From the NCBI GenBank assembly GCA_002633005.1, contig NMRA01000172.1, positions 269,866 through 333,865 on the forward strand: 64,000 nt of DNA, given 5' to 3'. Positions 1 through 61,300 of this stretch are shown piece by piece. The translations under genes and the position numbers were made by a program. The number at the start of each line of letters is the position of its first letter. Position 1 is the stretch's first letter. The notes below the pieces were generated by a model. That model had not been told where the DNA came from. It saw nothing but the letters and a program-made list of their open reading frames with translations, and did not search any database. Origin of the DNA: Phoronis australis. Its lineage: Eukaryota > Animalia > Phoronida.

Positions 1-850
1 GCTATCATGGCTGTACTTATGAGAATAGCCATCAGGCTCTAGAGGCATCAACTTCATCAAATGGACAATTATAAGGCCCCATGTTTGAATTGGGCCATTG
101 AAGCTGGCTACAGCTTGAACTCTCCAAGTACCGAAGGCAAAGTTAAAAGAATAGAAATTTAATAATAGTACTGCAGCCTACAGTATACTGCAACAAAACT
201 CCAGTCACACTCATTGTCAACATAAAACATCAGAAGGTATTGTAAAACAAAAGCAATGTAATGCCTAGTAAGGTAAACCCAGCAGGTCTGCCTATGTCTG
301 TGGGTCTGTGGCCTTCAATGGTTCAGATAGAGGTGATTGAGTGTCTGCGGAGGGTTTCAGGGGGGGGGGGGGNGGGGGGGGGGGGTGGATTCCTGGTAAA
401 TTGCACTACAGGGCTTATAATTTTCCTCTTCTAAAAGGATTTCCATTTTTTTTGGTTTTGATTTCGTCTTGTTTGATTTCCAGTTTCCTCTTTTTTGTCT
501 CTTTTTATCATTATCAATTGACTTGCAACCAAAGTTTATTTCAGTTAAATTTTACATCAAAAATATTTCTATTACAAAAACTTATGTGTTTGGAAAATTT
601 TCCTCTTTTTTGCCATTGGTTATTCCAAGCCTGGACACTACTCTCACTTTGTCCACAGATTTTTCCCAAGAATTGAGGCATTTTTGTGGCTACGGTATGA
701 CACCAGAGAGCTTCGCAATGGTTTATCTGCCATTTGATGCAGTGCTAAGTATAATTTGACCAGGTTTTAATTAACCTGCTTAAATTGCCAATATTTACTT
801 CCTAATATGCTTAATTATTTCAAACGTTCATATCCCATCTGTAGAACAAT

Positions 851-948
851 ATGTGGGGTCTGCCGCCGTCACTGCTGCTGTTGCTGAGTGGCTGTGCACT
901 GCTATCCTTATCATGTGGACAACTTGAAGAAAGACTTGAACCAGCACC
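851..948 (+). CDS. Gene 1 coding exon 1 (signal peptide)
   Basis: MWGLPPSLLLLLSGCALLSLSCGQLEERLEPAP; acceptor AG 843-844; donor CC|GTAAGT phase 2 joins exon 2; paralog exon ends similarly (ERLEPLP). Confidence 0.85.
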
Positions 949-3900
949 GTAAGTTGAAAGATGTCACACACTCTCTGGTGGTTGGTCTTGATCTACTTGA
1001 AGAGAATGTCTTCTTGTACTTGTCTGTTAATAACATCCATTCTATAATTTTTAAAATTACAGTTGCAGTAATGGTATTACGCATGTTGCTATTTAAGAAT
1101 CATCTAAAAATTAAGGCTGTCTTCTCATAAAAAAAAATAATTGCAGGCGTTCTGATACACGTTGTATCAGATGTGCGCAGGCCTCGCATGTGGGCCCATT
1201 GCACTGATCACCTGGAAATATTTTTCTGCTTTATTGATATATGGTTAAAACCGAGCTGAGGAGCTAGAAACCTGGCTCAAGGGTTTAGCAGTGTGACCTG
1301 GTGGGACTTGAACCCACGACCTTGAGTAAAGAAAGCGGGCACTTATCAACCAGGCCACACTGCCTCCTCTTGTCTTCTCATAGAACTATGTGCACATTTT
1401 AGTTTGATTCATCTTAAGTTGGACGTGGAGAATTGTGGTTAACCTTTAAATCAAATGATACTTGGCTTTGTTGAATGGTAACACTTGCAAAAATTGACAT
1501 TTGACCCTTGTAGTGTTGTCATTGTGGGTTACTAAAGTTTGAAATTTAATGTCACATGACTGGTGATGTAATCGAGTTTTCTTGTGTAGCATCAAGAAAT
1601 CGTAACAAAAATTGTTCAGGGAAATGTTGTGCTAAAACACCTGTGAAAGACAACTCATTTTGATTGTTTTTGAGTAAATCAAAAACATTTGGTTCAAGTA
1701 TGCTTTTCCGTTGTGAATGGGTCAGGTGATACCATTCTGTATGGTCACATGATGCCATAGATATCATATGTATACAGTCATGAAGCAGAATTATCTTATT
1801 GATGAAGCTAAAGTGATTTACCGGGACTCCAACTGTGGTTACCATTTATTTTCCAGAACCTATTTATTGGCTGCCCCACGAAAGGTGCGGCCCAACCAGA
1901 TAGTAACTATGAGTGCTACACTGCTGAGACTTGAGTACGAAAAGATCAACTTCCGTGTACTAATCAAGCGAGACGACACTGAGATCTGTAGTGTGAGCAG
2001 AGAGTTTGATGCCCCGGGCACACAAGTTATGCAGATGAAGGTTATTAACTGTTCAATCAATTTGTTTGTTGTTTATCTTCTATGCTATGCTTCCTGTTAA
2101 ATCTAGTTGCTATTCCTCATGAAATTATTTTGCCTAGTACCTAGTTGTTTTGTGTTTGACATCGCTCGACATAAGCGAGTAAGCATTTGAAAATACGAGT
2201 AGAAAAACTAAAAATACAGAATTGGCCTCACTCTTACAGGCACCAAGCCGCTGTCGGGCATTTTTTGGTCCCCACTTGTTATGTGCCCAAATTCGGGAAT
2301 AAGACTTGCAAATATGCCGTCAGTCATATTTTCAAGCAGACATGTTCACCTGTGTCAAGCGCTGTTTCATGGTATTCAGGTCATGACAAGTTAATTTGGA
2401 AGCTTGCTAGTATAATATTGATATGTCTATGTTATTGTAACCTGTGTACCTTCACTCTTCACATGAGGCCTAAAAGCACCACTGCAGTCATTGATTTCTT
2501 AAGAGCCATAACTCTGTTGTTCATTGAAGAATTTTTCTGAAACTTGCTTTGTGGAGAGTATGAGAAAAATATGTCATACGTGTTGTGCAGAAAGAAACTA
2601 TGGTTTGTGTTTGAGCTGTCATGTTATGTGTGTTTTGATATTTCAAAGTTTGGCATCCAACTGTTGATAGCGTCACTGGAAATTATACCACTGTTTGGTT
2701 TCCAATAAGCTTCTGACAGCATGCTGTCCCAAAACACCTATTGGAATAGTTTCTTTTTCTACCTGTCATGTTATCGGAGTCTCTGATATTCCTCTGTCCT
2801 TAGATGCCTGAGAACACTGTGGTGGCTAATTACACTCTGCGAGTGGAAGGAACGACAGGTAGCGGTTATGGCGGGTTCCTTTTTGAGAACGAAACCGCGT
2901 TGCAGTTTGACTCGAAACAGATCTCGCTGTTTATTCAACTCAGCAAGCCACTCTACAAGCAAGAGCAAACAGGTGATAAGTTAATGTGTTTAAGTCTCAA
3001 CCTGAATTTTGTTGACTTGGTAAACAATTATCGAGGACAACTGTTTTGGTCAATTCGCCTGCCTTCGTCAGTTTGAGATGTCGAATACACTTTTGAATAA
3101 GATCACTAACTGTTATAGAATTGGTTACAGTCCACATGTATTTGTGAGATTAGAAATGATAGTTCAGCTTGGCGAGAACTGGGGAATTGTTTGTGGTGGT
3201 GGTTGAATTCAGTGAGTTGGAGTTCACGGGTTGGTTATACGCTGAAAGTAGCACGGTTACAGTCAGTGCAATGGAAATGGGCTGATTCTGTGATCAACTG
3301 GTAGGTGGAGCTGCTGGATAGTGTTATTACCAAGAATTCTAGTGTATGAATTTTGAATTTCTTGTCCACATGAGTTTTATTTTTATGTGAAATAATGTCC
3401 ACATGCGCATCTCTTGCAATATTCACAGGGAGATTGTTTTATTTGGAAAAAGTATTAATTGTCGTGCATGTAGGGAAATTTTTTTCCAGTTGTAAGACAG
3501 CTGGTGCGTAGCGTTTTTGACAGTCTTTAAAGAATCTGAACTGATTACATTTTCTCCACCATGTGAACGGGACACTGATTGGAACTTCCCATATTTACAA
3601 ACCGGGATAAAACTTTCATAGAAAGCATACTTCTTGACAAGTTTATGAATCATTATATTTTATGAAAAGTGACTCAAGACTTGAGGTAAAAATGTTGGTA
3701 TTATGCTCCCACTTTACTGAATAAACGTTTAGGCAACTAATTAATAATAATTATAAAGCGCATCACACTTTAGAATTAATGTATAAAAATTATCTCGGAA
3801 ACTAGCTATTGTGCGTATGTTCTCAGAGACTTTGCACTCATCCTCAAGTGAGATTTAATAATTTTTCAGAAATAGCTGTATGAAGTGTTCAACCAAATTT

Positions 3901-6900
3901 CTCACTTAAGTCTCTTTTCATAAAACAGACCCCAAGTTAAAGCATTAATAGGGTCGTCCCGGATTACATGGTGATAGAACTCTCCTTTGTCCCGGAGATA
4001 AAAAAGTGCATGACATCGTTTTGGAAATAGGCACATTTTCCTCTCTCATTGATGTTGGGAAGGCGAAGAACTTCACGTCACGCGTCCACGGGTATTTGCT
4101 AGCTTATCAAACTTTCTCACATCGGAGTTGCAGCCCACAGCACAGCAGTAATAATTTATTAGCATTGGAAGGACGAATAGAGAGTAATGCAACCGAGAAA
4201 AACTTGTAAAGAATCAGGTAACAACAAATGGCATGTGAAACTCCAATGGTAAGAAAACGAGACAGCAAATGTGCCTGACGGATGTTTGTGGCATTGTGGG
4301 TAAATACAGTGAGATTGGAGTGTCGCTGTGTAATCTGGGACGACCCTATTGAATTCACAGTTGCAGGTTTTTGCCGATATCATATCCCTCAGTCTACTGT
4401 TGATCTCAGTATGAAAATAGCTCAATGTACAAGTTATTGACTTTTAGTTGATTTTAGTCTTCGTTGTTGCATAAACATTAGAATTATGTCTACTGTTGTC
4501 AACCGTTGTTTGCTCATATTTGTTGTGGCTTTCTTTCCAGTTCGTTTCAGAGTGGTTCCTTTACAGACAAATCTCCAACCAAGTCACACAGATATGAACA
4601 TTTTTGTATATGTAAGTGAAAACCTGGTTGTCTATGTGAAATAACAACCACTTTTATTTTATCGTAAGATATTATGAAATTAGTCATTAAAAAGATCTTG
4701 TCTTTAAAGTATAATTACTTCCCAAGTCAACTCATCAAACTCAGTAAACCTGCCTGCCATCAAAAACTATTGTTTGATTTATACCACTTATTCTTAACTC
4801 AAGTTAAAAGTGATTTCTGGGCTTGATAACTACTGGCAGTTTGTTATTGCTTGAATTGAGGTCCGTGCACCGAGCTTGGCCTTGGACATTGATGAACTGC
4901 CAGTTCTTCTGAAACCTGCACTTCTAATCTAAGGAAGAAACAAGTTGCGACCAGTTTCGTAATTTATTTAAAGGGAAGTGATGTAATATTTATTTTTTTT
5001 GACAGGGCAGATTTACGGCAGCTTTTAAATTACAAATCACGGGGTCAGTTCTAATAAAATAAGCGTTTCATTACCTGGCTTACTAATTCGTGACACCAAT
5101 CAACTCAGTCACCTTTCTAAAACCCCACCCATTCAGCCTTTATTTGCAATTAGCACTTTTAAGGAGTACTCTTGATATTCTGGACAGGTCCTTTATTGTA
5201 CTCACTTGTTGGCTAATGATTAACTGAAAAACAATGCAAATGTTGTCAGTTGGATTGAGACTCTGAGTATGAAAAAGGTGATTCCTCTGTACACAACGCG
5301 CCGTGCATTGCTGAAGGTCAGGTTACAAATTCAAAGTTAACATAGTAAAATATTTACTTCTCGAAACACCAAAAATCCGTCGATTTGTACCTTAAGGAGG
5401 ATAAACTTGCTTGACGTATTTACTTGATGCAACATTAACATATCTGGTTGCCTAGATGCTTGGCAAATTTCAAGAATTTTCACCAGAGTGGTGTGTGGCT
5501 TGTAGTGTAATTTGTGGCTCTGGTTAACAGTGAATACTGCAGTATATGAATTGCCAGCCTTGATTCATCTCATGCTCTGCTCAACAGAATACTGCAGTAT
5601 ATGAATTGTCAGCCTTGATTCATCTCATGCTCTGCTCAACAGAATACTGCAGTATATGAGTTGTCAGCCTTGATTCATCTCATACTCTGCTCAACAGAAT
5701 ACTGCAGTATATGAGTTGTCAGCCTTGATTCATCTCATGCTCTGCCCAACAGAATACTGCAGTATATGCTAATTTAATCTGACAAAATGGCTGTCAGTGT
5801 TCCGCTTTCATGATAGCCGAACTCTAGTGTAATGACGGCAAGTGTAGTTCGCCATCACAGTATTTATAATGGTCTCTTATGACGAGTTGTGGTAGATCAT
5901 TAACTGTTGTGAAGGGGAGGTGGTATTTCAACGCTGTAGCATGGGTCATCTGTGACTGAAACTAATCTCCTGGCAATTTTGTTTTCTAGGATGCTAATGG
6001 CGGTCTTGTCAGAAGATGGCTGAATCAACAAACAAATTCTGGTAATGTTGTGTGCTGGTTTGAATTTTTTTAACCAAGCCCTTACGATGCTTTTGATGTA
6101 CTTTCTCTCTTATGAATGCTTTTAACCTCATCAGTTGTACACAGAATGTCGTGAACAAAGTATTTGATTCCTCACACGCTGTGTGTCTGGGGTAAGTGTA
6201 GTTTTACCATTTCCAAAAGATGTTTTACGTTGGATGTTTCACCCGTTATTAGACAATTTTTTTCTTCAGTTAGAGAGAAATTACACTGAAAGTTCTTTTT
6301 ATGTTTTCCTTTATGTTGTGTATCAGTTTGCATGGCATGCAATTCTTTCTAGAAACTCGTATTAAGTTCTTTTAGTTATTTGTGTCTTGTTAGCTTAATA
6401 CTTTAATTGGCAGCTTATTCCCATGACGACTCATTCTTTGGCCTTCCCTGTTCACGTGAATTTGAGCGTGTATCAGATTTTAGAGTCAAAATTTGGGGTT
6501 GTTGCACTAATATTGCTTTAAATTCTTGAAAAAATTGGTTGAAATGTATTATTGCAAAATACAACTTTCATTTTATTTTTTTGTATTTTGTAATCATGAT
6601 TTTGTGTCTACGAGTGTCACTTTTTATCTTGTACCCCCTACTAATCCTCACCAGTGTGTTCCAAAAATTTCAAGCCCGGACTGTGAGTGCCGAGTTGTTT
6701 TTGCTAGTGCACTGTTTCAATGGATCACCATCTGAGGTCAAATAATTAGAGATTTTCATGAAGCAATAGATTCAGATCATGTGGTGCTAATGAATGACTC
6801 ATACTCTTCCCTGGCTGAGGAGAAGAAAATATCACTTTTCATTGCATTACGGCTCAAGTATGCCCCTTTATGTACACCATAAATGGTTTCATCCTAAAAT

Positions 6901-9900
6901 CATTCATCACAAGTAAGGGTGATTATACGTGTGTGCCACTGAACAGAACTCTGCACTTGAGTAAAAATCACCGATTGAACTTGTTTATGCCGACTGACAT
7001 GACAATGAATAGCATAATTAGATTTCCTGCTCATTTCAAAATGTGCGTATTAGTTGTAGTAGTACCTCCAAACACCGCCAAGTGGCAGCTACAGTCTGCT
7101 GCCCTGTGTGATCATTTACAGCCCATTAGTTACTAGTGGGGGTCTTTTCTGTCCTGGCCATAATGCCAATCAAATTTCAGCCAAATGCACGTTTATGTAC
7201 ATGTGCTTCAATTTCTGTACGTGCGTTTCGATTTTTCGACACATTTTTCAATTCATGTTTGCGCGTTTCAGTTCATGTGCACATGTTTTAATTCTTGTAG
7301 GCGTATTTCATCTATGCACACATTTTTCAATTCAAGAATGCATGCTTCAGTTCATGCGCACCTGTTTAATTTCATGCTCATGTGTTTAAATTCACGCACA
7401 CATGTTTAAATTCATGAACATGTGACTGTTTAAATTCATGGACACGTTTTTAAATTCATTTAGGCATTTTTTAATTATGCATGCATTTTTTAAGTCAAGA
7501 ATGCATGCTTCAGTTCATGCACGTGTTTAAATTCATGGACACGTGTTTCAATTCATTCACATGTGTTTTAATTCAGTCACCCGTGTTTCAAGTCATGCAC
7601 ACGTGTTTCAATTCAGTCACACATGCTTCAAGTCATGAACACCTGCTTCCTATGTTGAAGAAACAGTGTTAGAATCTAGGTCAACAGTGTTCTCCCTGCA
7701 TGTATATAAACATAGTGTTGCGCCATCTTGGAAAAGTCATGCACCATGTTTGGAAATTTTGAGTCATGTTACAAAAACTGTGAGCCTTCATTTGCAGTAA
7801 AAATGACCGTGAAAAGCTCAGCAAGTGAAAATAGTGTGTAACTGTTGTTGTTTTTGTGAAATAACAAAACAAGATTAGGACACGGAAACATTGCGTGCAA
7901 TTTGTACCATGTTTAAACTTTTACTCTGGCAGAACCGTGGTCAAACTTAGAAAGATTCTGGAAAGCGTTTCAAGTATTAGGAACCAACCAACTGTAGCTG
8001 TTTTGCATTTCATTGTTTACCTATCTAACTATTGTTTGGTTGTCCTGGCACATTTCAATCCAGTATGTATATTCACTCACCATTTTTCTACAGACACTGT
8101 TTTCCCAAAATGCACTCGGTATCCTCTTCAGTTTTGACAGAGCATGTTTTACTAACAATCTCCAGTTGACCTGCTGGTGTTTCACCCACCGTAACCTTAA
8201 TCCCCTACCCCCTGCTGTGTTGGTTTACCCTGTCCTAACCTCCTACCCCCTCCTGTGTTGGTTTACCCTCTCCTAACCTCCTACCCCCTCCTGTGTTGGT
8301 TTACCCTGTCCTAACCTCCTACCCCCTCCTGTGTTGGTTTACCCTCTCCTAACCTCCTACCCCCTCCTGTGTTGGTTTACCCTGTCCTAGCCTCCTACCC
8401 CCTGCATGTGTTGTGTCACCCACCCCTAACCTGTGTTATTACACCTCCATACCTTGTCTCTTACCGCCAACCCTGCCTAATGTATTGTATCACTAACTTG
8501 GTCTGTATCTATAGGTATCCTGTCTATGTCCTTGGCCCTCTCCGGAGGAATGGGCTTTGGTCAATGGACCATAAAAGTGGTCGCCTTCGTAAGTTTAAAG
8601 CGTTGATTACACACACACGGTTATTGGGAAATTCGTGTGCCTGTGCTTTATTCACTGTTTTTGCCTGTGCTGAGAGCTAGTAGCATGACAAATGTAGTCT
8701 TGTGGCATGTTTTTCACTGACTCTTTATAAAACTTCATAATGTTACTGCCAACTGCAGGGCAGTTCTGTTTTGAGTGGCTTTGTAACTCATTGTTGAACT
8801 TAGCGATATGCTCCAATTGTCTTGAGAAATTCTACAACATCATGTATTGGTTGAAGTGTGAAGGGTTTTTTACTTATGTAAACCCCATTCTCCTTTTTAT
8901 CGTGGATTAATTTAGACAATCAAAAATCTGTTCCCTGGATTTTACTACATTTTTGTCAACCCGTACTTCCTGGCTCATGAATTGGGAGGAAAGGGATGGG
9001 GTGAAGGGGGGATGGGGGTTGAGTGTAAAAGGTGTGTGGTGGCACAGACAAGTGGAGCATATCCTGAAAGACTTTATTTGCTAGAGTTGACTGCATTGTC
9101 AAGGCACAGCGCGCACAAAAACATTCGCTTGCAATCAATAATCTGGTACTGGTGGCACATGTAGGACCATGATTCTTCACTACACGCTCTCTGTGTGTAC
9201 AAGGGGTCACAGACTGACCTGATTACCCTGTGTTATTACCTGAACAGCAGTATATGCGCTTTTCTATTTCTTGTTCCGACTCTCGTGTAGGCATTCTTAG
9301 TAGAGAATTCCGATTGGGCAAGCCATACATTGCATTTGGAACGTGGACTATCAAGGTGGTCGCTTTGGTGAGTAATGTGGAGTCTGTCGTCATGTATATG
9401 TCCATTTGCATGTATTTGTTTTAGTTTTTTGTTCTGTACGGTTACTTTCACTACAAATAATGAACGTACACACACTTGACCAGACTCTAGACAGGTCAAA
9501 TTTATATTTTTACGTCTTCCAAGCTTAGAATCTAAATTTCTCTAATCTTTCCTTTTCAACATCACTATGCTAAAATCTGTCGTGGATGCTCATCTGTAAG
9601 ATGATACTTAGCCCTGGTGATGCCCCCTGGTGGATCTTCCAATGATTAATTTCTAGTCCTCTCTTGTATGCCACATGGGGAGGGTGTGAAATAGATCCAG
9701 TGAAGGCCAAATTTAGTGATTGGGCTGTTGTCACTTGATTGTTTCAGTTGCTGCAACTCGCATGTTATTGCATGCGTTTGTTATCTGACAGTCTTAATCA
9801 CATGATTGTTTTATTTTTGATTGTGTTTTGAAGTGATCGCCTATTAACCTCAATTGTATCCTTGCACTACTTTCTGTCACTCACCTACTGAACTGTTGCA

Positions 9901-12900
9901 CACATTTTCACACACTAGTTAGATAGCACAGCATTATTGTGGTGGCACGAATTAGCACAAGATCACGGTTGTGGTGTTTACCATGCTTGAGGAATGAGGA
10001 TTCATTCATAAATGTTATGCCTTACTGACATGTGAGAGAGGGAGTACACTTTTACTGAGACTTGTTAGTTTTTGCAATGTGTTGACCATTCTGGAGGTTT
10101 AAATCACCTGAAGGATCTTTTTGCTGTTCCTTGTTTTATGTCCGTCAGTGTTGTAGTGGGTGAGTATTCTAAAAAGGTGGGTACCATAATTTTCAAAATG
10201 AACTTAATGTCTTAGAATTTTGACACAGTTTAGGGGCGTATATTTAAAGTACAGCTAGATATTCCATCAGATCCATAATGATTTATGAAAAAAATTCTTG
10301 CTTTGGGACTTTATTTCCATTGGAATTCTGACAAGAAGAATTGGAGACTATGAGCAATACTGTCAGATGTATTTATGGCTCAAGTGGACAACAGTGTTTT
10401 ATGATTATTGAAAAGCATGGCACTGTATATTTAAGGAACAACATAGCTGAGAGCTGAACTTTTATCTTTGTTAAGGTGTATTGTAAGTTGTATTCGTAGA
10501 TCAAGACATACATGCAATGAAATTTCTGATTCGGATTTTGAAGTATTATTGTGACAAAAGTGCATAAAATCTGGCTCGTATGAAAAATTTTCCTTCAAGG
10601 TCTGACTGGTTTCTTTCGAAAACTATTGTATTGTGTATAAAATCTCGCGAAATTTAGAGATTAAATTCTATAGCTTCAGAGTTCGTTGACGGATTTCCAT
10701 GAAATTCGACCAATAGCTTTTTATTAAGGAGATGGATAGACATTATCTAATGTCCATTTTGATTATTCTTGAGTTTGGTTTTTGACGTCTGCTTCTACAT
10801 CAACCAAACCACTTTAAGAATCATTGTAAAAATGGCATGTGTGTTCCTACTGTGAAGAGTACGGCTAACAATCTTCAGATGTGTTGGACTACTTTGGCGC
10901 TCCCCGTTGCCTTGGTATCTACCAATCTTTGTGGAATTTTAGCAAAAAAGTTATTATCATCAATGCAACAGCACCTGTCTCATTTCAGATTTGAAATATT
11001 TGACATATGAAATATGATGAAAGGTGGCAGGTCTATTCCTATTCAAGAGAGCACTTGCTGAATTACAAGCTGCATTAAGTTTACTAGTGTTGCTCCCTAT
11101 AGTGAGAATGTTTAAAATAATGATCATTCATAGTATCTGTGTTGTATGCGACGCACACGGTGTACATACATTGTTGTTCTTGTACATACCACATGTGAGT
11201 CTTATCTGAGCAGTTAAAATATTGGAGATCTCTTCACAGAAACACTCCTACATTGCACTAATTCTTGCTGTATTTTAGGGTCACGAGTATTTCAAGAACT
11301 TTGTTGTGGAAGAATTTTGTAAGTATTTTGAATGCTAGTTACCCATTTCATTATGACAAGAAACTCTGATTCTCTCCTGGTTGTTTAGATGTATCTACCA
11401 ATGCTCACTTTCAATATTGTTCCTTAGTTTACATACATTCTGCTGCAACACTGTGTTGATATTGACCAGGTGACACCATGGTAAGAACAAAGTAGAGGAA
11501 CTGACCATTTTCAAAGAGTGTTATGTTATGACCAACACCCAAGTGGTCGTGAACTTGGTGCTCTATATTGCTGCCATCTGGTTTTGGTTTCCTATTTGAT
11601 TTATGCAGATAGGATCTAGGTCAACATCCATAGTTCTTTTAAGATTGTTCCCTACCTTGGTTCATATGGGTGGGAACGATGTCAACTTGTGCTATGCTAT
11701 AAAAAGCTAGATTAAGAGCCATTTGCAATTCATGAAAATAGCTTTCTGTTTTTTGTTAGGTAAGAGTTCAAAGCTAACTGACACGAAGCGATCTAGACAT
11801 TTACTAGAATTAAGCAATGTGTGGAAATGTGATATAGTAAATATGGACGCTGATGTTGGCCAATAGTGAAACATATCAAATAAACTCAGAAAAAAACCAG
11901 GAACCGCAACTGGGAATCGAACCACAGGTCTCTACATTGCCTGTCTACATGGCCAACATCATGTTCTATATTTACTATATCTAATGAGCACATACTGGTA
12001 AATTACTGATTACATAATTGTCCAAATCTTGTGTATAAAAGGTGAAATGCCGCTCATTGGATGGGTGACATAACAGTTGGCTGCAAGCAGTAATTGCTCA
12101 GATGTCAGGTTCTCAGTAGCTCATTGGTAAGAGCACTAGACCGGCAACCTACTTTACTTTTCATAGAGCTCAATGGAAATGATTTGTCATGTTACATGCT
12201 CTGTGTGTGTTTCAGATGGACCAAGGTTCTACGTCAATGTCAGTACTGCACAGTATATCATGAGTGATAGCTTTGGTCTGTCAGGCACTGTCTCCTCCAA
12301 GTAAGTAATTGACTTTCTCACATGACCTGGAATGTGTTATGACACGACTGGTTAATAACACTGAGTACGTAATTTTTTGATATTACATGGGCAAATTACA
12401 ATGTAGTGCAAAGTAGAAAATAATCCATACGCCTTACATTTTATCATCTGCAAAACACTAAAACAACCAAATGTGCGCCAACCGAACAATGCCAGAATTC
12501 CGAGAAGGTGATGAGGTTGTGATTGACAAATTGGGTGTCGCAACTGTACGTACTCCCAGTCAGAAGGACATGCAAACAACCTCTTAAACAGACCCATCTT
12601 CGGCGGCAAATTCCATATCCACATTCATACAAATGGAGACGAGCTCCAACTCAAGAAATGCGGCGAGGCTGTCTAGCTGTGCTGTCTCAAGGTCAATTCA
12701 GTGCTCGCGCACGGGGAAGCCTTGCTGACTGTTATTTATATTTGTTAAGTTTTAATATTCCAACTTCAAAGAATATTAGATTCTAACTTGAATATTTGCT
12801 ACGAAAGTTGAATGCAATTTGTTAAGCTTAAAATAAACCTATTAACAAAAAGTAACTGAATTACTTTACATTGCACAAGCGTGTTTTTACAAAAGTTGCG

Positions 12901-15900: not shown

Positions 15901-18900
15901 CGTACATACAATACAAAGTAGTACATACTACATGCATACAATACTGCATACTACATGCATGCAGTGCTGCGTATTACATGCATGCAATGCGAAGGGCTAG
16001 ATACTGCGAAATATGATACAATACAATTGCTGGAAGACATGCTTTATTTTAATGCGATTTGTTGGTCACATGGGAGAATATTCTGTTGATGCCCTATCAC
16101 CAACAGGTGGCGTGTGGACTAGTTTAATGATTTTTTCAAAAAGGTTCTTAAAGAGTCATGGATATCTTGTTCATTTCTTACAATTTTTGTAATTGTCTAA
16201 AAAAATTTACATATTATGTCTTAAATGAAGTAGTGAAAAATGATAATTGGGCAGTAATTTTATATGATTTCTTTTTTAGCTTTCAGCATCTAATGAAGAC
16301 AGAACACCCATAACGACTCAACGGCGCCTGGTGACCATCTCTGAGAGCCATCGTCGCATAAATAACGGCGGTACTGTTACCAAAGAGGACAAAGAATACA
16401 CCCTGCCGTCCAGTGGTATCCTCTCCTTGATTATTACACCTGAGCTGAATGACGAGCTCATCACCTTGGAGGTATGTATTTGCCAAGTGATGAGTCATCT
16501 TGTAATATTGACTACGGTAACTTGTCTTCTTTATTTCGCACAAAAATATTCAACAAAATTTTCTATTTTGCAAAGGCTGATCACTTTATTGCAAATAATG
16601 GAAAATTTAACAAAAATTGTTTTATGACATGTACACAGTACAAGCCGTGCTAGTAATAGCCTAAATTTTTTACTCTTTTTGTGGAGAAATTTGACAAAAT
16701 AGAATATCACTTATCAGTCTTATTGTGTGCTAAATAAATGAAGAGTTGATTTATGAAACTATTTTAAATGAGTTTAATGAGACAAATGTGCACCAATCTG
16801 TTAATTTGGTGACAGTAGGCTGTCTGGGATGGAATAATTATGTTATCCATTTATTTATTTAAAATAAGAAACATTTTTGCCAAAGTCATAATGGTCAAAC
16901 ACAGGTACAGTGCAACTACTTGTGAAAGGATGGTGAATCTGGCATCTTGGCTATAAAAACAAAGAAACATTAGGATATTCCCATTGGTTGGAAGTGCAAA
17001 AATTCTGTTGTAATTCAGGTTGTTGCGACAAATGTCCAAACTCTATGTCATGCACACTCATGCCAACACGCGGAATTCAGCGTGACACAACACAGTCCAT
17101 AGATGGCACTGCACATCGCAGATTGTGTTGACTCCCTGATGTTATTGTTAATTAAACTATCAGTAGTATGTGTTAATAGTCAGATACAATATATTATGCC
17201 TAGGCACGCTACGAAGACTTCTCAACTCGCTACAAGATGCAGGCTTATCGCCAGTACTCACCTAGTGACAGTTACATTCAGATCACTACGTCTACAACAG
17301 ATACCAAAGTGAGTTTCATTTACGAAAGTCAGCTACCAGTCTTTTGATTCACAGGGCAACCCAATTCTTGTTGTAATGAAGATTGCAACTGAGTACAGAT
17401 GCAGTACTTGCACTGCTTGCCCAATAAACTGCAGATTAACCAGTTGTCTGGTGTGCACAGCGTTTTTTGAAAAACCTTTCACAGGGCTTGGGTAATTACA
17501 GGTATTTTTGTTTATGGACTAAAAAATGTATGACCTTCCGGTCTTTTAAAGGTATTCTAGAATAAAGATTTAGTTTGCGTTTCATTGAGTACAACTTTTG
17601 GATGTGTCTGAACTTCTGTTTCAAAGTGCTATTAATCCTAGAAAAATGTGTTAAGTAGACAGAAAAGAAAGTCATAAGACCGTCCTACAAAACAATCTTC
17701 GCAACATGTCTGTCACAGCGACCTGTTTTACAATTTTTCAGGTAAATGAATACATGATCTTCAATGTTCACACCAACACAATTGTGGATCAATTGTACTA
17801 CATGGTGAGTTGTTTGATTTAATTTAATTAATTAATTGTTGAGTCTTTGAATGAATCACGTTTCACCAATTTAAAATACCAACTTAATGCTTTACCATTT
17901 TGAAGTTCTGTGTTGTACTTTTCATAGTGCAATAATCTGACCATTTTCAAACATGTCGCCAGCCATTGAAAGCTGGAGGTTGAACTGTCTGGCATTCATA
18001 AATGAGATATTATTATTAAGCAGTGAAACATCAAGAGTGATGTGTAACCAGATAAAATTGTATGAAACCAAAGCTGACTTTAAATCCGTTTTGGGTCAAA
18101 AAACAAAACTTTGCTACAGTAGTGGTTCTGATTACTTAATTACCTCTATGCAATTGGTCTAAACTTGTGCCTCACTCAGATGAGAAAGTATTGCTAGGCT
18201 CCTACAGAACTAATGTGTTTTTACTAGTTGAGACCATGCTTGTCACATAAAATGTCACGCCGTGACAATACAATGACACGCTTTGACAATAACAATGACA
18301 CGCTTTGACAATACAATGACACTGTGGCGCCTCCTAGTGGCATTATTTGTGCACCCTTAGTTGTACCTCCTAAGCCCTCTGCAGGATCTTTATTAAATTT
18401 AGCAAGTGTATATATATGACGTTGACAACGAAGACGACAACTTTAAGATGGATCTGACAAATGCTCAGTCCCCTAGTGGCAATTTCATTTTTTTGTGTTC
18501 CCCTGTTTCTCTAACGTTCCTTGACGGATTTTAATGAAATGTGGTAAATTGCTTTCTGTTAAAAAGCCACTGACATTTTCCTGTTTTTTGATGGATTTTA
18601 AGTATTTTGCTCCACCTAATTGCCTTTTTATGACACAAATTATTCTTTACTTTCAGATTGTCGCCAGTGGAAACATCGTTTTCACAGAGACCTTGATGAT
18701 GTTCTCCCGACACAAGACGTTTTCCGTAGCTTTGTCACGTGACATGGTGCCAAGTGCTCGCATCATTGTTTACTTCATACACCCCACCACTGCTGAGGTT
18801 GTGTCTGACAGTGTGAACTTCTATGTCAAGGGAACTAGTATGAACACTGTATGTATCATGAGGTTGTGTCTGACAGTATGAACTTCTATGTCAAGGGAAC

Positions 18901-21900
18901 TAGTATGAACACTGTATGTATCATGAGGTTGTGTCTGACAGTATGAACTTCTATGTGAAGGGAACTAGTATGAACACTGTATGTATCATGAGGTTGTGTC
19001 TGACAGTATGAACTTCTATGTCAAGGGAACTAGTATGAACACTGTATGTATCATGAGGTTGTGTCTGACAGTATGAACTTCTATGTCAAGGGAACTAGTA
19101 TGAACACTGTATGTATCATGAGGTTGTGTCTGACAGTATGAACTTCTATGTCAAGGGAACTAGTATGAACACTGTATGTATCATGAGGTTGTGTCTGACA
19201 GTATGAACTTCTATGTCAAGGGAACTAGTATGAACACTGTATGTATCATGAGGTTGTGTCTGACAGTATGAACTTCTATGTCAAGGGAACTAGTATGAAC
19301 ACTGTATGTATCATGAGGTTGTGTCTGACAGTATGAACTTCTATGTCAAGGGAACTAGTATGAACACTGTATGTATCATGAGGTTGTGTCTGACAGTATG
19401 AACTTCTATGTCAAGGGAACTAGTATGAACACTGTATGTATCATGAGGTTGTGTCTGACAGTATGAACTTCTATGTCAAGGGAACTAGTATGAACACTGT
19501 ATGTATCATGAGGTTGTGTCTGACAGTATGAACTTCTATGTCAAGGGAACTAGTATGAACACTGTATGTATCATGAGGTTGTGTCTGACAGTATGAACTT
19601 CTATGTCAAGGGAACTAGTATGAACACTGTATGTATCATGAGGTTGTGTCNGTTTTCTTTTGGAAATAGCTCTCGCAATGTAAGACAACGGTCATTTATT
19701 GCATGTAACCGTTGAAGTAAAATGCTGTTGCCCAACCTGATGGTAGTCAAATGCACTGACTAAAATGCTGAACTGTCATTTGTTTTCCATTTGATGACCA
19801 TTCTGAAATGCTGCTACTTGAAATCTTATCTCATTTGGAATTTCTTTGCTTTAACTTTTGAGGACCTTACTGCACGTACACTATTAAGAATTACGTATTG
19901 ATGGAAGAGTCTGTTGAGCTTGACAAGAAGTGGCTGTAAAACACACGATTCAGCTTGATTTGTAACTTGTGCCATTTATTGTCACCTGTACAGGTGATTG
20001 ATGAGCTGCTTACCTACGATGCTCACGCCAACTCGTCGTTCGGCCATACCTGGTATTTACCTGACCAGAAACAGAAGAGAGTCTACTACCCATCACCCAC
20101 GTACGCGCCTGATGCCAACAAAACATTTGCAGTAAGTTCATACTTTGACAACATTGAACTCAATTTTAATCATTTGTGGTGTATTTAGTCGATAACGGTT
20201 TGCTGAACTTACCTGGAGTTTTGAGGGTGGTGCTTTTATTTTGCTGTTATGGTGAAGGACCTGAAGCTACATCCCCAATCTCTCTCTGAAAGATTCTGGA
20301 AAAACGTGTTTCCAGTTGAAATTTTTTAATTCAGACTTTTCGTGTTCTTTACATTTTACAATGAAATGCTTTGGATTGTTTTGATTTTTTGGTTATTTGC
20401 AATTTTAGTTGTCAATTAGTTTCCAAATACTAGGTTATATATTTTTATTATACTGTCTGACTAATAAATTTTGTAAGTCTTAAACCGGCATGAAAATATA
20501 AATCACTATCATTACTGTGATCTGCATGCCACCTATTGAGTAGAACCCAGGACCCTCTGCTGACTGTGCTGATGCTTTAGTCCTCTGAGTCATCTGGTAT
20601 ATATGAATATGCAAATCTTAAACTGGCATTTGAGTCCTGGTCGGAGCAGAAACTCTTTCAGACTTCTATCTATTCATTAGGTTGCATGATTTGGCCAATA
20701 GGTGGCGTGCAGACCAGACTGAAAAAATTAATGTTTGAGATGTACAATATATTGTCATTTCATTGAGTATATCTTGTAGCTTTATTTTAATTGCCAGATG
20801 TACTTTTTTAGAATTTTTGCATTATGGTTTTTGATATGTCTTCAAATATTTATTCAGACAAATATATAGTACGCACAATCCTTGTCTATTTTATTTTTGA
20901 ATAGTTGTAATAGAAATGGATATTTGTTTACTCAGGTTCACCATTTTGCATTCTATATCATAAAACAATATGTTTTCAGTTTGCTGGGCTCCACGTCTTC
21001 ACGGATGCTAAGCTGATTGAAGTGAAACGTAAGTCGATTGTCAGGACAACAGTACAGGAAAAGAAAAGTCAGATTTGATACAAAAAAAAATTATTGAACC
21101 AAATCCATTTGTCTGTCTAAATTATGTAAGTTCACCAAGTTATAATTTTGGAGATTTGTTTATTTTTGCATTAATTTATTTTTGTGCGGGTAGTTTGGGA
21201 TAGCGCCCTCTTTTGGATGCACTTTTGAATGTTAATTTTTCTGCAGTCCTCAGTGTAATACACCTTATTGTTGATAGCAGTTCGTGAATCATTCGCTAGA
21301 GTGGCGTCACAGTTCACGCAAAGCATTATGGGCAATATTTTGGATTTTGTTTTAAGAATGGCCTCTTTAGCAGATGACGAGTTACGAAATGGCGGCAATC
21401 AACAATACGGTGTATGCCAATGCCACTTTATAATTGTTCAAATTCTGTATTCCGCAGACAACTGTAACTTCACACTTGGTTGGTTGCCATGCTGGAATGG
21501 CGAGTGTTACCGTAACCATACTCGCTGTAATGGAGTCTTTGACTGTAAGAAAGATGGCGCCGATGAGTTTGGATGTACGTACTTTTCTGTATCAGCTTCA
21601 TATTGTCTTTGCCATGTTGCTTTACTTCGTGGAAGTGTTGCAGTGTAAAGTACCTGTTCATATTTGGCGACATTTTAGTGTATTTACAAGTTGGCTTCAT
21701 TTGGCTTACGTAGTTGAATGTGTGTTCAAAATGAAAAACATTCTTGTTCAGATGGGTTAGACTGAGACAAGCCCAACTTTGTGGCCTGATTAAGACACTG
21801 TAGATTTTTGTTTTTTGCTTGTAGAAATTGTATCTGAATTGCAAATTATGTCCACCAATCTTTGTTTTCAGGAAATTGTTACTTGTCCATAGGTGTGACT

Positions 21901-30900: not shown

Positions 30901-33900
30901 CATGTTCACCTTATTATTGTGTCCTAGGTGACGTCATTGGGCCAGGCATCTACGATGACTTTGTTACCTCCCTGTCTGTGCTGAGAGAACCTTATGCCTG
31001 TGGTGAACAGTCAATGTTCAACTTTGCGTATAATCTGTACAACCTGAAGTTCTTGAAAGACACCAATCAACTGAGAGATGATATACTGAAGACTACACTG
31101 GAAGGGCTTAACTTAGGTACACCAGTTTGGATTGGGGGGGGGGCTCTCCCGTTTCCCAACGGTNAACTAGTCTGCATAGTGGCTTAAAATTTTGTGGAGG
31201 ATAGTTGTCAATCATGGGTGTCATTCACACACAATAGACCTTTTGAAATTGACAAGCAAGATCATTGAATTAAAGCAGTTCTTGATGAACCCTGCTCTGT
31301 GTAAGTAAACACAGCTTAGCAATGGGCTTATGGTCCTGGCTGAGAAGATAATTGTTTTATTACCCCGCGTGGATTCTTGGAATCCATTGTAGCATTATGA
31401 TTGTCTATTTCTACTGTTAAGCACTGATCAGAAATATTCGATATTTCTCTGCAAAGTATTGTATCTTGATGGGAACAACACTCCTAAACATTTTGCAACT
31501 AATGTATCCGTCTGTTTAAACACCTGTAATAGTGATTAATTTGAGAAACACAAGATTTGATAGTGAGTGAAAATATAATGAAACATGAGCTTTCAACAAA
31601 CTAGAGAGATTATTTAGATACACAAGTGTTCAACTAATTTAAAAGTATAAAATTCTAACAGACAACTAGACTCCATTTCTCATGTATGAAGTTTGGTACA
31701 ATGTCACCAATTTCAAGGTCTTCTGACATTATGGTGAACGACCACAATTTTTCAAATTTTTTTTATCGATTGTAGCTTCGGTACAGAACTTGAACGTGTT
31801 ATTGGTTTAATTTGATACTACATTGGTATCTTTTGTCAGAAAAGAAGAAACTAAAACTTCCCTTGTCTGCCATATTGTGTCCTGCATTGGTGAGGATTTT
31901 TTGCTTTTTTCAGAACTTGAATTATTACAAATAAAAAAGTCACATTTTCCCCAGAATATATGACATTGACATGTCGAGCATACAGAGTAAGAGCGGTGAG
32001 GGAATGTCTTGTATCTCCACAGGTCTGCAAGAGAATGATGCGTACTACCGCGAGGAGGGCATGTTTGCCTGGATGCTTGTTTTTGAAGACTGGAGCCAGC
32101 CCAGCGTCTGGCTCACTGCCTTCACTGTGGCCACTATGCATGACGCCATTGTGGCAGACTGGGTCAACGACTTCTTCATTGATATCTCCATGCTGGATAA
32201 GATGGCGTTGTGGTTGTGCTCACAGCAGAATATGGAGGGGCCGCTTAAGGGAAGCTTTAAAGGTTGAGTTGACTAAGTTTCCACCACGTGACTGTAGATA
32301 TAATGTGGATATTATAGACACAGTGGTCTATTGTATAGAAATAAGTGAAAGCTTAGGAACAGAGATATAAATGTTTCATGAAATATGGAGGCGTGTTAAT
32401 GAGGATTACTTTTGTTAGAACTTTACACAAAATGTTATATGACTTGTTCTTGTATCTAATGTTAAGATGTTATATGTAGACTTGTCTCCCCTGTTAAGAG
32501 TGTTGCATGCTAGTTGTGCTTCATGCCATTTCATGGGTTTAAAGATAAGTTATCATCATTGAAATGAAATGACGTTCACTCTTCTCTTCATTTCAGAGAG
32601 TTTTAATCCATATGTTAGAAGTGTACTTCAGGGTTTAGTTACCTCTTTTAATGAAGAGTGATGACCTTTTGCCCTTGAGTGCGAGTCATGCAAAATCCTT
32701 GTATGTTTCTAGAGCTGGCGCAGGTTTATGACCGCAACATGAGGTCACCGTACACGGAGGTCAACGGGGTGCAAGTTAAGGAGAATGTGACCCTGACTGC
32801 CTACGTCTTGATTTCATTGTCCAAACTTACTAAGCTGACTTCTTGGAATGTAAGTTCAACTTTGAATATTATGGAGATCTATTGCTTGACAGTCTCAAAA
32901 ATTATGATGTAATAGAACATCACTAGGTGGTGCTTGTGGCATATTGAATGTTATTTTATTAATGTTCCATGAGGTGCACGTTATAATGATCAAAATCTCA
33001 GCAAATAACAGTCTTAGAAGTTGTAGTCTTTAATGGTTTTTGGTTATTCACATGTCTGAAGCTGCAAACTATTCTTTGAGCTAAATAGCTAGTGTGCAAA
33101 ATACAGGCTTTATTTTAGAATTGCGCTCTGCATCAGTGGTGCATAAAATTTCTTAATTCTGGTCATTGGGCACATAAAAAAGGATTTGCTGTCATGCTTT
33201 ACTTTGTCTTTGGTCATAACCATCATGTTGATATTCTAACACAATGACAATGCAGAGTAGCCAATCAAAGCCAATGTCAGTGATCAAAACAGCAATGTTA
33301 TCACCCAGGTCAATTATAGTATGCATGAAAGTATGCAGACTCAACTTTTATTTTATGTCTTTGATTTACAGTTATGTGTTATGATGAATAATAAATCGGC
33401 GCATAACATGAAGCAGACAAAATCGCACACTCTAAAGTGCCCTCTTAAGAATCAATTCGAAAAAAGCCAGAAAATTTTTATGAATCCAAAGGTCTTTGAA
33501 ATTGGTCCTTAGATTTGAGGCTTTATGTGCCAGTTAACCCAGAACTACATTTTTGTAAAATGATCCCTGAAAATATAATGTAATACCGTTTCAGGTCAAT
33601 TTGGTGACACAAATAGCTCAATTTCAATCAAATAATTTTGATTCTTCAGGACGCGCGTGCTAAGGTAGACCAGGCACAAAAACTGGCCCAGGATTTTCTG
33701 GGTACCAAAGTAGAGACAATCACTGACCCATATACCATGGCTATTGTCTGCTATGCACTTCACGTGTCAGAGAGCACACGCAAGAGTGCCGCCTATCAAC
33801 GGCTAAAGAGCATGAAGACTGAGAGTGAGTAATTAAGACAATAACTACTCCATGTTATTTGCTCAATGGTGACAGTTGTTAGAATGCCTGCTGATTAGCT

Positions 33901-55153: not shown

Positions 55154-55340
55154 TGTTTTTAAGCCCAGAAATCGCCTCGAATTTTTGCGAAGAACATAAG
55201 GATCAGTCAAATTTCTTAACTGTCAGAGTTCTAAATAAAAACCTGTATTTTAGACGACCTTTGCTTTGGGTTTATAGATGTAGCAGTTTTCTATTGGAGC
55301 TTTTGCACTTTGTTCATGTTTCTTTGCAGTGTATCACGTG

Positions 55341-58300: not shown

Positions 58301-61300
58301 TTTGGTGTTCGGATGATGACCAGTGAGATAAATATAAATATATGTAGCTCACTGATGATGACCAAGATGGATGTTGGGTTCAAAAGAATAAAATTTAGAA
58401 TTGATACTCTTATAATTCGAATACAAGTTTCTTGGCGCATTGTATTAATTCACTGTTATTTAGGACGCAGACCGTTGTCTATGTCTACGGTTTGAAATAA
58501 ATGTATTACGTAGTCCTAATGCTCCCTAAAATCGCTGACGTCACTTCCTCATGCAGATGTAAACTGTTTCGGTAGCAATGGACTTAAATAGAACAACCAT
58601 TGCGTAAAAGCACAGCAAATGCACAAAATAGTCCACTTTTCTGTTTTAGGATGGCAAAGGTTTGATGGTGAAACGATGGCAAAATCAACAAACATTATCA
58701 GGTAAGATGAAGAGCTATACGATAATGACACGCCACACTATACTATGTAATATTAAACCAATGTACTGGTCTCAAACTTTGTACACTGGTTATAGAAAAG
58801 ACGTTTATAGGCATATTCATATTATTTCGAGTTCGCTGCAAATTTTGGATATTTGGATTCTAAACTACTTAGAAGGTAATTTCCTCTTTCATTTTACCAT
58901 TTTTCTTCAACGCAAATACTGAAACAATCTTGTATGGCATGCTAAATTATTTTGTAGACAATTTCCAAAATTTTGGTATACTGCTCAATATAACTCATTG
59001 ATGTGAAAACTAAACATCTAAAAATGATAGACAACTTCACATGGGCGGCGAAGCACTGGAAAAAGTGGGGGCTGAAGCCCCCTCAGCCCCCCCCGTGGTT
59101 CACCGCCTTTTGACCATGTGCGGCGTAGCACTAAAAAAGTGTGGGTGTGCTATATCCCACGGCCCCCTGTGGTGCGCCGCCCATGTTTCAATCAAAAGTT
59201 GAAACATACACGCAATTCTTGCAGTATATCCACCAAGGCGAGGCTGTTTGAGCAGATTCGATGCTTGTTTTCACACATTTCAGTTTTCCACCGCGCCATC
59301 TAGTGAGTCTTAGAAAGCTCCATCTTTTAAAAGCAATTGGCTGTTAACACGACGGAAGCCCAATGAGGCGTAGCCAAAACCAAAGGTTCGAAGGATACGG
59401 CGTTCCTTAAAAGCGGTCACTTAATGCAGTTCTGCGTTTGTCAGTTCGGTGTCGCATTTACGGCGATTCTGCTGTCATGTGAACATGCTTTACTCTGCTA
59501 ACAGTTTCCCCATGAGAACGTAAATTAAAGCAAGTTACTTTTCACAAGCAAGTATTCTAGTCTAACTAACCTCTGTATTTACCGAATATTTATTTCTATG
59601 AAGTGTTATGTTTTTTTTGCAGGCATAATCGACAAAGAAATTGAAATCGCTAACTATAATTCCATCTCGTATGGAGAGTGGACTATTAGCGTGATAGCCT
59701 TTGTAAGTTGGAGCTTATGTGTGCAAATATTTATAACCAAGATGACATAGCAATATAATGTCACCATTGGTTTTAGCCGGTTTTTTCACTGACAGAAGCA
59801 TTCGTATAGTTGACTGTGTGTGTGGGAAAACGTCCCTTCTAATAGAGGACTCAGTTGCAAACTGCATTTTCGTCAATTCCGAACTGGCGGACATGTATGC
59901 ATGCCGTCCAAGGAATGCAAGACCGTGAATAATACATCACAAATTCTGCTTTGACGTGTGCATTCCATTTGCCAGTAAAATAGCCTCGGTAACAAATATT
60001 TTCACTTTCGACGAAAAATCCCGATTATTTGTTATATTCCAATTATGTGGTGAGACTAAAGTCGTTGTATGGGTCACACAGTCAGCAAAGGGGATATTTT
60101 ACACCGTTCAGCTCGGAGGCTATTTAAATTCTCAAAAGTCATTAACATCTTCCTGCTGTAGCTTATTCACGGACGAATCACGTGATTATTCCAGAAAATG
60201 TCACTCTTTAAAGATGCCGCATCCTCTTGTGCTAAGTCGTGCGGCTGTTGATCATCGTTGCCTTTGTGTGACCAACAAACAAACAAATATGCATTTTATG
60301 TCATGTTTTGTTTTCCAGGAGCACACCTATGATAAGAAGTTTGTTGTGACGGAATTCTGTAAGTAGACCCTATACCTTGCCATACGTATGTTTGTTGTGC
60401 CCTTAAATTTTGTTGATGGACGAACTCTAGTGTTCCAAAACCAGAATAGAACACAAAAACTCACGAAAAATATCTTTCAAACAATTCCAACAAACTTACC
60501 GTTTCGTAATGTCTACGATCACTTTCATCTGTAAGGAAATTCCAAGAGAAAAATAATCATCAAGTTTGTCAATTATAAACATGGACGTAAATTCAAACTT
60601 TCCTTCCATGAACCATATATACGCGCATGCGCTCATATCAATATACAATAATAACAAAGATAACAATCTACTATAGCTAAACACAGTGAGAAGAGTGAAT
60701 GTACAGCAGAGGAAGTGACGGGACTTCCGCTAAAATTCTAGGAGTGAAAGATTGAGTGAACAGATATACTCCGTGAAGATTGAACAAGAGACTGGTTTAT
60801 TGGCTGCAAAGCACGATCGCTGAGAGTGCCCAGAATGAACTAAATGCTAGACGTGTCACGGTCGGCTGCGAGTTCCGACTTCTCCAACTGTCCCTATATT
60901 TTCAACAACCTTAAGGTCAATAACAGGGGTCAAGATGGCTTATTTCCAGATACGGAAAGCCCGCATTGCATATTGGTACAGAACCGACGAAGTGACAAGT
61001 GTTTGGTAGATCGTTTTTAAAATTTTGATTCGAACTGAGATAAAATACTTCAAACTGCATGGAAATTCCAAATTTTTGTGAAAACGTCTTAGAAGAAACT
61101 TTTTGATATACTGACATCAAATTAAATGTAACAAAAATAATTACGTTTTGGGACTATATCAGACCATTGCATTTTCCCATGGCCTAATTATATCTCTCTA
61201 AACCGAAAAAAGAGTTCCGTAGAATTAGTTTCTTGAGAGAAAAGCAAGATCTCGCAAAATTTTCCGCGACTTTGTTCGGGAGGTTGCTAGTTTAGCAAAG

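Follow-up and report, generated by a model that had tools for sequence, protein, structure and literature searches.

Organization of the locus and classification of gene 1

The window analyzed in this study, i.e., the whole 64,000-nt stretch of Phoronis australis DNA, contains two tandem paralogous genes on the forward strand, and the features discussed below are listed in Table 1. Gene 2 (55340-64000) has the same exon layout as gene 1 and is 82% identical to it on exon 3. Pfam searches of gene 1 identify A2M-family, TED, receptor-binding, and LDLa modules. The LDLa module is encoded by a six-cysteine exon located where other TEPs have the bait region, and the C-terminus carries four cysteines and a transmembrane-like stretch of 19 residues with a mean hydropathy of 2.06. 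The coding part of exon 1 is a prediction based on its translation and donor. The spliced model of 32 exons (exon 2 through the final one) remains open as far as the terminal stop with 6a or with 6b, and its length is 1479 or 1480 residues; comparison with homologs shows that the model lacks at least one exon, at the assembly gap at 19651.

Table 1. Features of the window (positions in the window; +, forward strand)
Feature	Position	Strand	Description or basis
Exon 1, coding part, gene 1	851..949	+	Signal-peptide-like; GT donor after 949; fixes exon numbering
Exon 5, constitutive, upstream	5990..6041	+	Donor joined to both 6a and 6b in RNA
38-nt tandem array, 5.5 copies	8204..8413	+	Unit contains degenerate Ua/Ub word
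Ua, candidate selector before 6a	8430..8444	+	13 nt (8430-8442) identical to Ub; predicted
Exon 6a, minor form	8515..8588	+	74 nt; precursor residues ~192-216
18-nt inverted repeat, 5' arm	8805..8822	+	3' arm 9046-9063; crosses both selector helices
D1, candidate docking element between exons	9034..9047	+	Predicted complement of both Ua and Ub, counting G-U pairs
Second copy of D1 9-nt core	9150..9158	+	Sequence
Ub, candidate selector before 6b	9227..9239	+	13-nt word; predicted
Exon 6b, major form	9291..9367	+	77 nt; RNA joints
D2, third copy of D1 9-nt core, downstream of 6b	9940..9948	+	Sequence
Exon 7, constitutive, downstream	11279..11318	+	RNA joints
Exon 8	12216..12300	+	Early stops 12261 and 12265; RNA joint 11318>12216
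LDLa exon, MCR hallmark	21458..21574	+	Pfam PF00057, E = 1.2e-4, 22.6 bits, just below 24.1 cut-off
CGEQ thioester motif, intact	30999..31010	+	Sequence; TED match
Single exon 6, tandem paralog gene 2	59623..59702	+	80 nt, same phases

The sequences closest to gene 1 are mollusc and annelid MCR-type proteins, including ones named BgMCR1. In three protein searches and a representative search, the best full-length identity to any homolog is approximately 42% (57% on exon 3), and no close relative of gene 1 was reached by the protein searches. In a quick tree of 21 rows, a set without deuterostome sequences, gene 1 falls in the spiralian MCR group, with SH-aLRT values of 100 for both the MCR group and the spiralian subgroup; it does not fall within the mollusc clade and is separate from CD109.

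MCRs are defined in the account of PMC7016707 by an LDLa module, a membrane helix at the C-terminus, a cluster of cysteines, and a thioester that is mutated, and the mutation is stated there to apply to all MCRs. Gene 1 has the LDLa module, the cysteine cluster with the tail, and the tree grouping, but its thioester is not mutated. Because CGEQ is intact, the gene is classified here as a member of the MCR clade rather than as a canonical MCR. It shares with Drosophila Mcr/TEP6 and Biomphalaria BgMCR1/2 the MG domains, the LDLa module replacing the bait, the TED, the receptor-binding domain, the four-cysteine cluster, and the hydrophobic tail, whereas it differs from these MCRs in keeping CGEQ and in having a duplicated MG2 exon. 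CGEQ is kept in 4 of 104 rows, two of which are the Owenia MCR-type proteins P0252 and P0254, contrary to the statement that all MCRs lack it.

Structure and expression of exons 6a and 6b

The original prediction described exons 6a and 6b as a mutually exclusive pair, and the lengths, phases, AG/GT splice sites, and translations that it gave are all correct; both exons are of 3n+2 length. The claimed homology of 6a to 6b was recovered by tblastn within the window (E = 5e-5; 14 of 25 aligned residues identical), as was the match of 6a to exon 6 of gene 2 (E = 2e-4), the next match in the window having an E value of only 2.2. The middles of the two exons were said to differ sharply, and they do: 6a has a net charge of 0 and a GRAVY of +1.0, and 6b has a net charge of +2 and a GRAVY of -0.6. 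No third copy of exon 6 was found in the window with a profile from 77 homologous exon-6 peptides. In the spliced model, inclusion of both exons leads to a TGA at 12261 in exon 8, as had been claimed, and the skipping of both, an outcome absent from the original prediction, leads to a TGA at 12265 in the same exon.

The RNA data are three stranded raw-read runs with the same species label (X1, X2, and X3; approximately 18-19% of each run). Sense-strand read cover is continuous over the introns of the 6a/6b cluster (6042-11278), and the contig run X4 contains no sequence on exons 6a/6b. The check proposed with the original prediction was a search for the joints 5>6a, 5>6b, 6a>7, and 6b>7, all of which are present. 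In X1, X2, and X3, respectively, 5, 0, and 1 reads (6 in total) support 5>6a and 10, 13, and 6 reads (29 in total) support 5>6b, while 6a>7 is supported by 5, 0, and 0 reads, i.e., in X1 only, and 6b>7 by 5, 4, and 1 reads (10 in total). Against these 50 joint reads of four types, no 6a>6b or 5>7 joint is listed on 5900-11400; a joint was listed only with at least three reads from two starts, and rarer double inclusion or skipping could escape this threshold. The upper bound for double inclusion or skipping is approximately 6% if the reads are independent. Exons 6a and 6b are, with near certainty, a transcribed and mutually exclusive exon pair.

Exon 6b is dominant, and 6a accounts for 6 of the 35 upstream joint reads. 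The counts are small overall, and 10 of the 11 joint reads of 6a come from a single run. The use of 6a in upstream joints differs between X1 and X2 (Fisher test, p = 0.044) and less clearly between X1 and X2+X3 (p = 0.064); at most, the between-run difference hints at regulation.

The mean sense-strand depth in the cluster introns is 1.8, 1.1, and 5.1 in X1, X2, and X3 (25 exon-free bins), and exon 3 has a depth of approximately 14-16. The introns of the cluster hold reads, while the flanking introns are nearly empty (0.4, 0, and 0; 5 bins), which suggests slow splicing, or detained introns, at the 6a/6b cluster. The stops at 12261 and 12265 are located far upstream of the last junction, which makes transcripts with both exons or with neither likely targets of nonsense-mediated decay. 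The exon choice is likely to be policed by this pathway.

Candidate competing RNA pairing in the cluster

In the upstream 300 nt of 6a and 6b, the sole residual similarity is a stretch of 16 nt containing the word that is designated Ua before 6a and Ub before 6b. Ua precedes its acceptor by 70-85 nt, and Ub precedes its acceptor by 50-65 nt. The Ua/Ub word is the longest shared among 561 acceptor-pair comparisons, in which two control pairs share 12-nt words by chance, and it has only two occurrences in the window at one mismatch or fewer (0 of 100 shuffles reach two).

The best partner of the word is D1, which lies between the exons and has a pairing energy of -15.0 kcal/mol; such a value is reached in 1 of 300 shuffles when that intron is shuffled and in 10 of 300 when all cluster introns are. 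Among 23 real 4.9-kb stretches, this partner strength is equalled only by a stretch overlapping the cluster. A blind three-way scan looked for a single intronic element able to pair with sequences upstream of both exons of an adjacent pair; among 32 such pairs, 6a/6b takes first place with -17.0, and the runner-up reaches -14.5. The 9-nt core of D1 has three copies in the window (from 9037, 9150, and 9940), all of which are in the cluster; three copies are reached in 2 of 100 shuffles, and no triplet of this kind occurs in any of 10 control stretches. The predicted duplexes are of 14 bp for Ua with 9034-9047 and of 12 bp for Ub with 9036-9047, and with flanks, the values are -25.4 for Ua:D1 and -18.1 for Ub:D1. 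One copy of the 38-nt array pairs with 9025-9056 at -16.0 kcal/mol. These RNA tests were selected after the word had been seen. Judged from the sequence, the chances are even that RNA pairing contributes to the choice between 6a and 6b.

Somewhat short of an even chance is the alternative that exclusivity comes from splice-site competition, protein regulators, and decay only, and that the words are protein-binding, branch-point-linked, or products of chance. This is consistent with the early stops in both wrong products, with the scores of the exon 5 donor and the 6b acceptor, which are below the median of the gene, and with the AG-free zone of 126 nt at 6a; the word is also UG-rich and preceded by a branch-point-like pentamer. 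Moreover, neither selector helix forms in the nested equilibrium fold of 8400-9300: both have a pairing probability close to 0, and 10.6 and 17 kcal/mol are needed to force them, pseudoknots being outside this model. The 8805:9063 stem that crosses both helices has a pairing probability of 0.99 in the same fold. On the other hand, two word families that were found separately, by repetition, are complementary to each other, and the pair that they flank is the first of 32 in the blind scan. The unlikelihood of steric exclusion, described below, also argues against an explanation without pairing.

Other causes of exclusivity were considered and rejected. A docking site of the Dscam exon 6 type upstream of the cluster reaches -9.3 at best, and 222 of 300 shuffles are as good. 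Steric hindrance is unlikely, since the intron between 6a and 6b is 702 nt long and an AG precedes 6b by 42 nt, and U12/U2 incompatibility does not apply, since both donors are GTRAGT. No Rfam match was found on 5900-11400.

Location of the exon-6 segment in the MG2 domain

As had been proposed, the exon-6 segment aligns within the MG2 domain of solved TEPs (residues 185-209 of A2M, and CD109), and its position in the precursor is well outside the central region in which TEP splicing is reported in the account of PMC7016707. Exon 6a alone has no PDB match, and a single-exon protein search gave no match. The folded model of an Owenia homolog, with a mean pLDDT of 79.8 and CD109 as its best fold matches, contains a strand (139-144), a loop (145-152), and a further strand (153-161); this homolog has the loop length of 6b and stands in for the isoforms, and the model ends before MG8. 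On this model, the variable part of 6a/6b corresponds to the end of one strand and the following loop. The exon residues G1 and W18, two of the 16 columns that do not vary among 55 homologs, are retained in both 6a and 6b.

The loop consensus in 77 distinct homologous peptides is D (84%), Q (90%), and P (90%). At this position, 6a has G-G-M, and 6b has G-K-P and one extra residue, so that D-Q is gone from both exons. The D-Q-P loop is also lost in exon 6 of gene 2, and two Owenia sequences and one Macrostomum sequence are likewise divergent at this loop.

By way of a snail MCR, the exon-6 loop aligns with L194-P198 of human A2M, a distant homolog in which we know of no alternative exon at these residues. 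For native A2M, a preprint (10.1101/2022.05.10.491262) describes an interface in which E197 and E223 of MG2 interact with the hidden lysines K1393 and K1397 in the receptor-binding domain and which vanishes on activation. In C3b, E197 and L198 of MG2 are described as contacting the CUB domain (PMC4868954); by aligned range, these residues fall in the exon-6 segment within approximately 3 residues. Gene 1 is without the acidic residue of the A2M loop and without the basic residue of MG8: at the position matching K1397 of A2M (ungapped mapping), R is found in 75% of 65 homologous segments, and gene 1 has N. Because the matching basic residue of MG8 is N, the ancestral MG2-MG8 contact may have been lost or rebuilt in gene 1. 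The relation between the loop and this R is not a strict covariation, since insect-type sequences keep D-Q-P without the matching R. The receptor-binding-domain helix at 38880-39054 is off consensus (N for R and T for D), in step with the possibly facing MG2 loop.

The original prediction regarded the variable segment as a switchable surface loop outside the classical bait region. The location outside the bait region holds, but the description as a surface loop is less easily reconciled with the conserved D-Q-P and the alignment with a contact of A2M. Since the loop is conserved in relatives and aligns with the A2M loop that touches the receptor-binding domain, an interdomain contact appears likelier than a free surface loop. 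That the 6a and 6b forms actually differ through such a contact is a tentative proposal, with odds a little below even.

The competing possibility, that an exposed loop changes a microbe, receptor, or junction partner and that bait-like diversification has been moved to MG2, is rather improbable. The sharp difference in charge and GRAVY between the middles of 6a and 6b would suit it, as would the difference in 6a use between X1 and X2, and MG2 of C3b belongs to a regulator-binding platform, as described in PMC4868954. However, the difference in 6a use loses strength when X1 is compared with X2+X3, and relatives show strong conservation of the loop, whose counterpart in native A2M takes part in a contact between domains. 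In addition, by aligned range, the regulator strand of C3b described in the same account (175-186) is upstream of the mapped segment (approximately 195-202), and there are only two variants here, as against 5-12 in the bait-type clusters described in PMC7016707.

Age and distribution of the duplication

At the degenerate codons of residues that are identical in 6a and 6b, 10 of 13 differ in the DNA, so that the synonymous sites are near saturation. Because the reading frame, the splice sites, and 14 of the 25 residues have nevertheless been kept, the duplication is, on the sequence evidence, old, and both copies have been under long purifying selection. This argues against the possibility, which we consider unlikely, that the pair is real but near-neutral, i.e., that the loop constraint was lost in this lineage, the two proteins are alike, and the duplicate persists as only one copy is usable in each transcript. 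The loss of D-Q in 6a, 6b, and the gene 2 exon, together with the divergent Owenia and Macrostomum sequences, would be expected if the constraint had been relaxed, as would the minor use of 6a. The far weaker notion of an artefact (a pseudo-exon, an allele assembled in tandem, or reads from a paralog) could appeal to the assembly gaps elsewhere in the window (3 N) and to the origin of most 6a reads in one run, but it is very improbable in view of the splicing, in X1, of each copy to the same exon 5 upstream and the same exon 7 downstream, the similarity of at least 99% in most reads, the sense-strand cover of the intron between the copies in all three runs, and a divergence of 6a from 6b that is far too great for alleles.

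A metagenome scan reduced 157 pattern matches to two loci, L001 and L002 (the latter of 1472 nt with 34% identity). L001 carries at 310-7970 the MCR gene of another animal, in which the positions and phases of the exons match those of gene 1 and exon 6, present once, is 74 nt long and located at 3510-3583. A second exon 6 was found neither in gene 2, nor in the L001 gene, nor in 20 homolog clusters, none of which is a close relative; these clusters have 111 members, of which 87 cover the segment, and within a cluster the members differ by 3 residues at most. In Biomphalaria, Aplysia, and Pecten, the annotated isoforms have different ends but no difference in MG2. Judged from these distant relatives, the 6a/6b pair is most suitably described as restricted. 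In Owenia, there are at least four MCR-type proteins (P0078, P0081, P0252, and P0254), two of which have a divergent MG2 loop, a diversification by gene copies where gene 1 uses exon copies.

Proposed mechanism and comparison with known systems

We lean slightly toward a combined explanation in which a gene of the MCR clade carries either-or exons for an interdomain MG2 loop, the choice between them being governed by RNA pairing and nonsense-mediated decay. An ancestral unit composed of an upstream word, the exon, and a downstream complementary word would have been duplicated. Pairing of D1 with Ua would loop out 6a, and pairing of D1 with Ub would mask the sequence that precedes 6b. As Ua:D1 is the stronger helix, it would favor 6b and suppress 6a. 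The observed preference for 6b (29:6 reads) agrees with the stronger Ua:D1 duplex, 6a being the minor form that would be suppressed. Wrong products with both exons or neither would be removed by nonsense-mediated decay. The glycine-rich, uncharged loop of 6a and the basic, proline-bearing loop of 6b would then pack MG2 differently on MG8 or CUB or bind a different partner.

A more far-reaching version is, in our view, improbable: an independent ATE1-like RNA switch in a thioester-retaining protein of the MCR clade would swap an MG2 loop that latches the receptor-binding domain, the two forms would differ in activation threshold or receptor exposure, so that splicing would act on the conformational lock instead of the bait, and combination with the other exon pair, located after the LDLa exon, would give four isoforms.

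The candidate regulatory layout resembles that of human ATE1 exons 7a/7b as described in PMC7797038, in which the elements R1, R3, and R4 are proven to act and a helix with the element of the first exon suppresses that exon. In both genes, similar elements are found before each exon; the complementary element between the exons is, in gene 1, a predicted candidate that the duplex tests favor and the equilibrium fold does not. The ATE1 elements touch the polypyrimidine tracts, whereas the words of gene 1 are further from the acceptors; gene 1 also has extra copies of the partner word, and the two genes are unrelated, as are their sequences. The duplication model of PMC6071210, as given there, predicts the layout of gene 1, with upstream words and a complementary element.

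Mutually exclusive exons are reported in TEPs in PMC7016707, with 12 in BgTEP2, 5 in Drosophila TEP2, and 6 in the Chlamys farreri TEP. Like gene 1, these genes have tandem homologous exons, one of which is used per mRNA. They are described there as iTEP, CD109, or A2M genes that vary a central, bait-like region, whereas gene 1 varies a folded, conserved segment of MG2 with two variants. The TEP splicing cases in the literature searched change the bait-like center and hence the target range; in that literature, bait-region cases only were found and no MG2 alternative exon in a TEP or MCR. What is new here is the site, i.e., MG2 of a gene belonging to the MCR clade, together with the candidate ATE1-like switch, while either-or exons and TEP splicing are of known kinds. 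The surprise is limited, because either-or exons arising by tandem duplication are common in animals.

If the explanation is true, an either-or exon in MG2 would be a second route of diversification, one that acts through the packing of the folded molecule, and 6a/6b provide a natural two-state test of the role of the conserved MG2 loop. The cluster of approximately 1.5 kb is also a compact candidate for competing-pairing control in a non-mollusc gene of spiralian type. Fly Mcr is described as functioning in septate junctions, phagocytosis, and wound chemoattraction (PMC7016707 and PMC12254109), and by analogy, the 6a and 6b isoforms could separate such roles.

Other features of the window

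Dispersed repeats at 3670-4350, 10799-10831, and 11830-12390 attract reads on both strands from other loci. A tandem array of 13 copies of a 65-nt unit (18794-19650) repeats an exon end and its donor and runs into the gap at 19651. A second candidate pair of either-or exons, of 106 nt each, is located directly after the LDLa exon (23448-23553 and 24899-25004). No competing-pairing triple was found at this pair, which takes a middle rank in the blind scan (-12.4). In the spliced model, the frame is kept with either of these exons, and a stop arises with both or neither.
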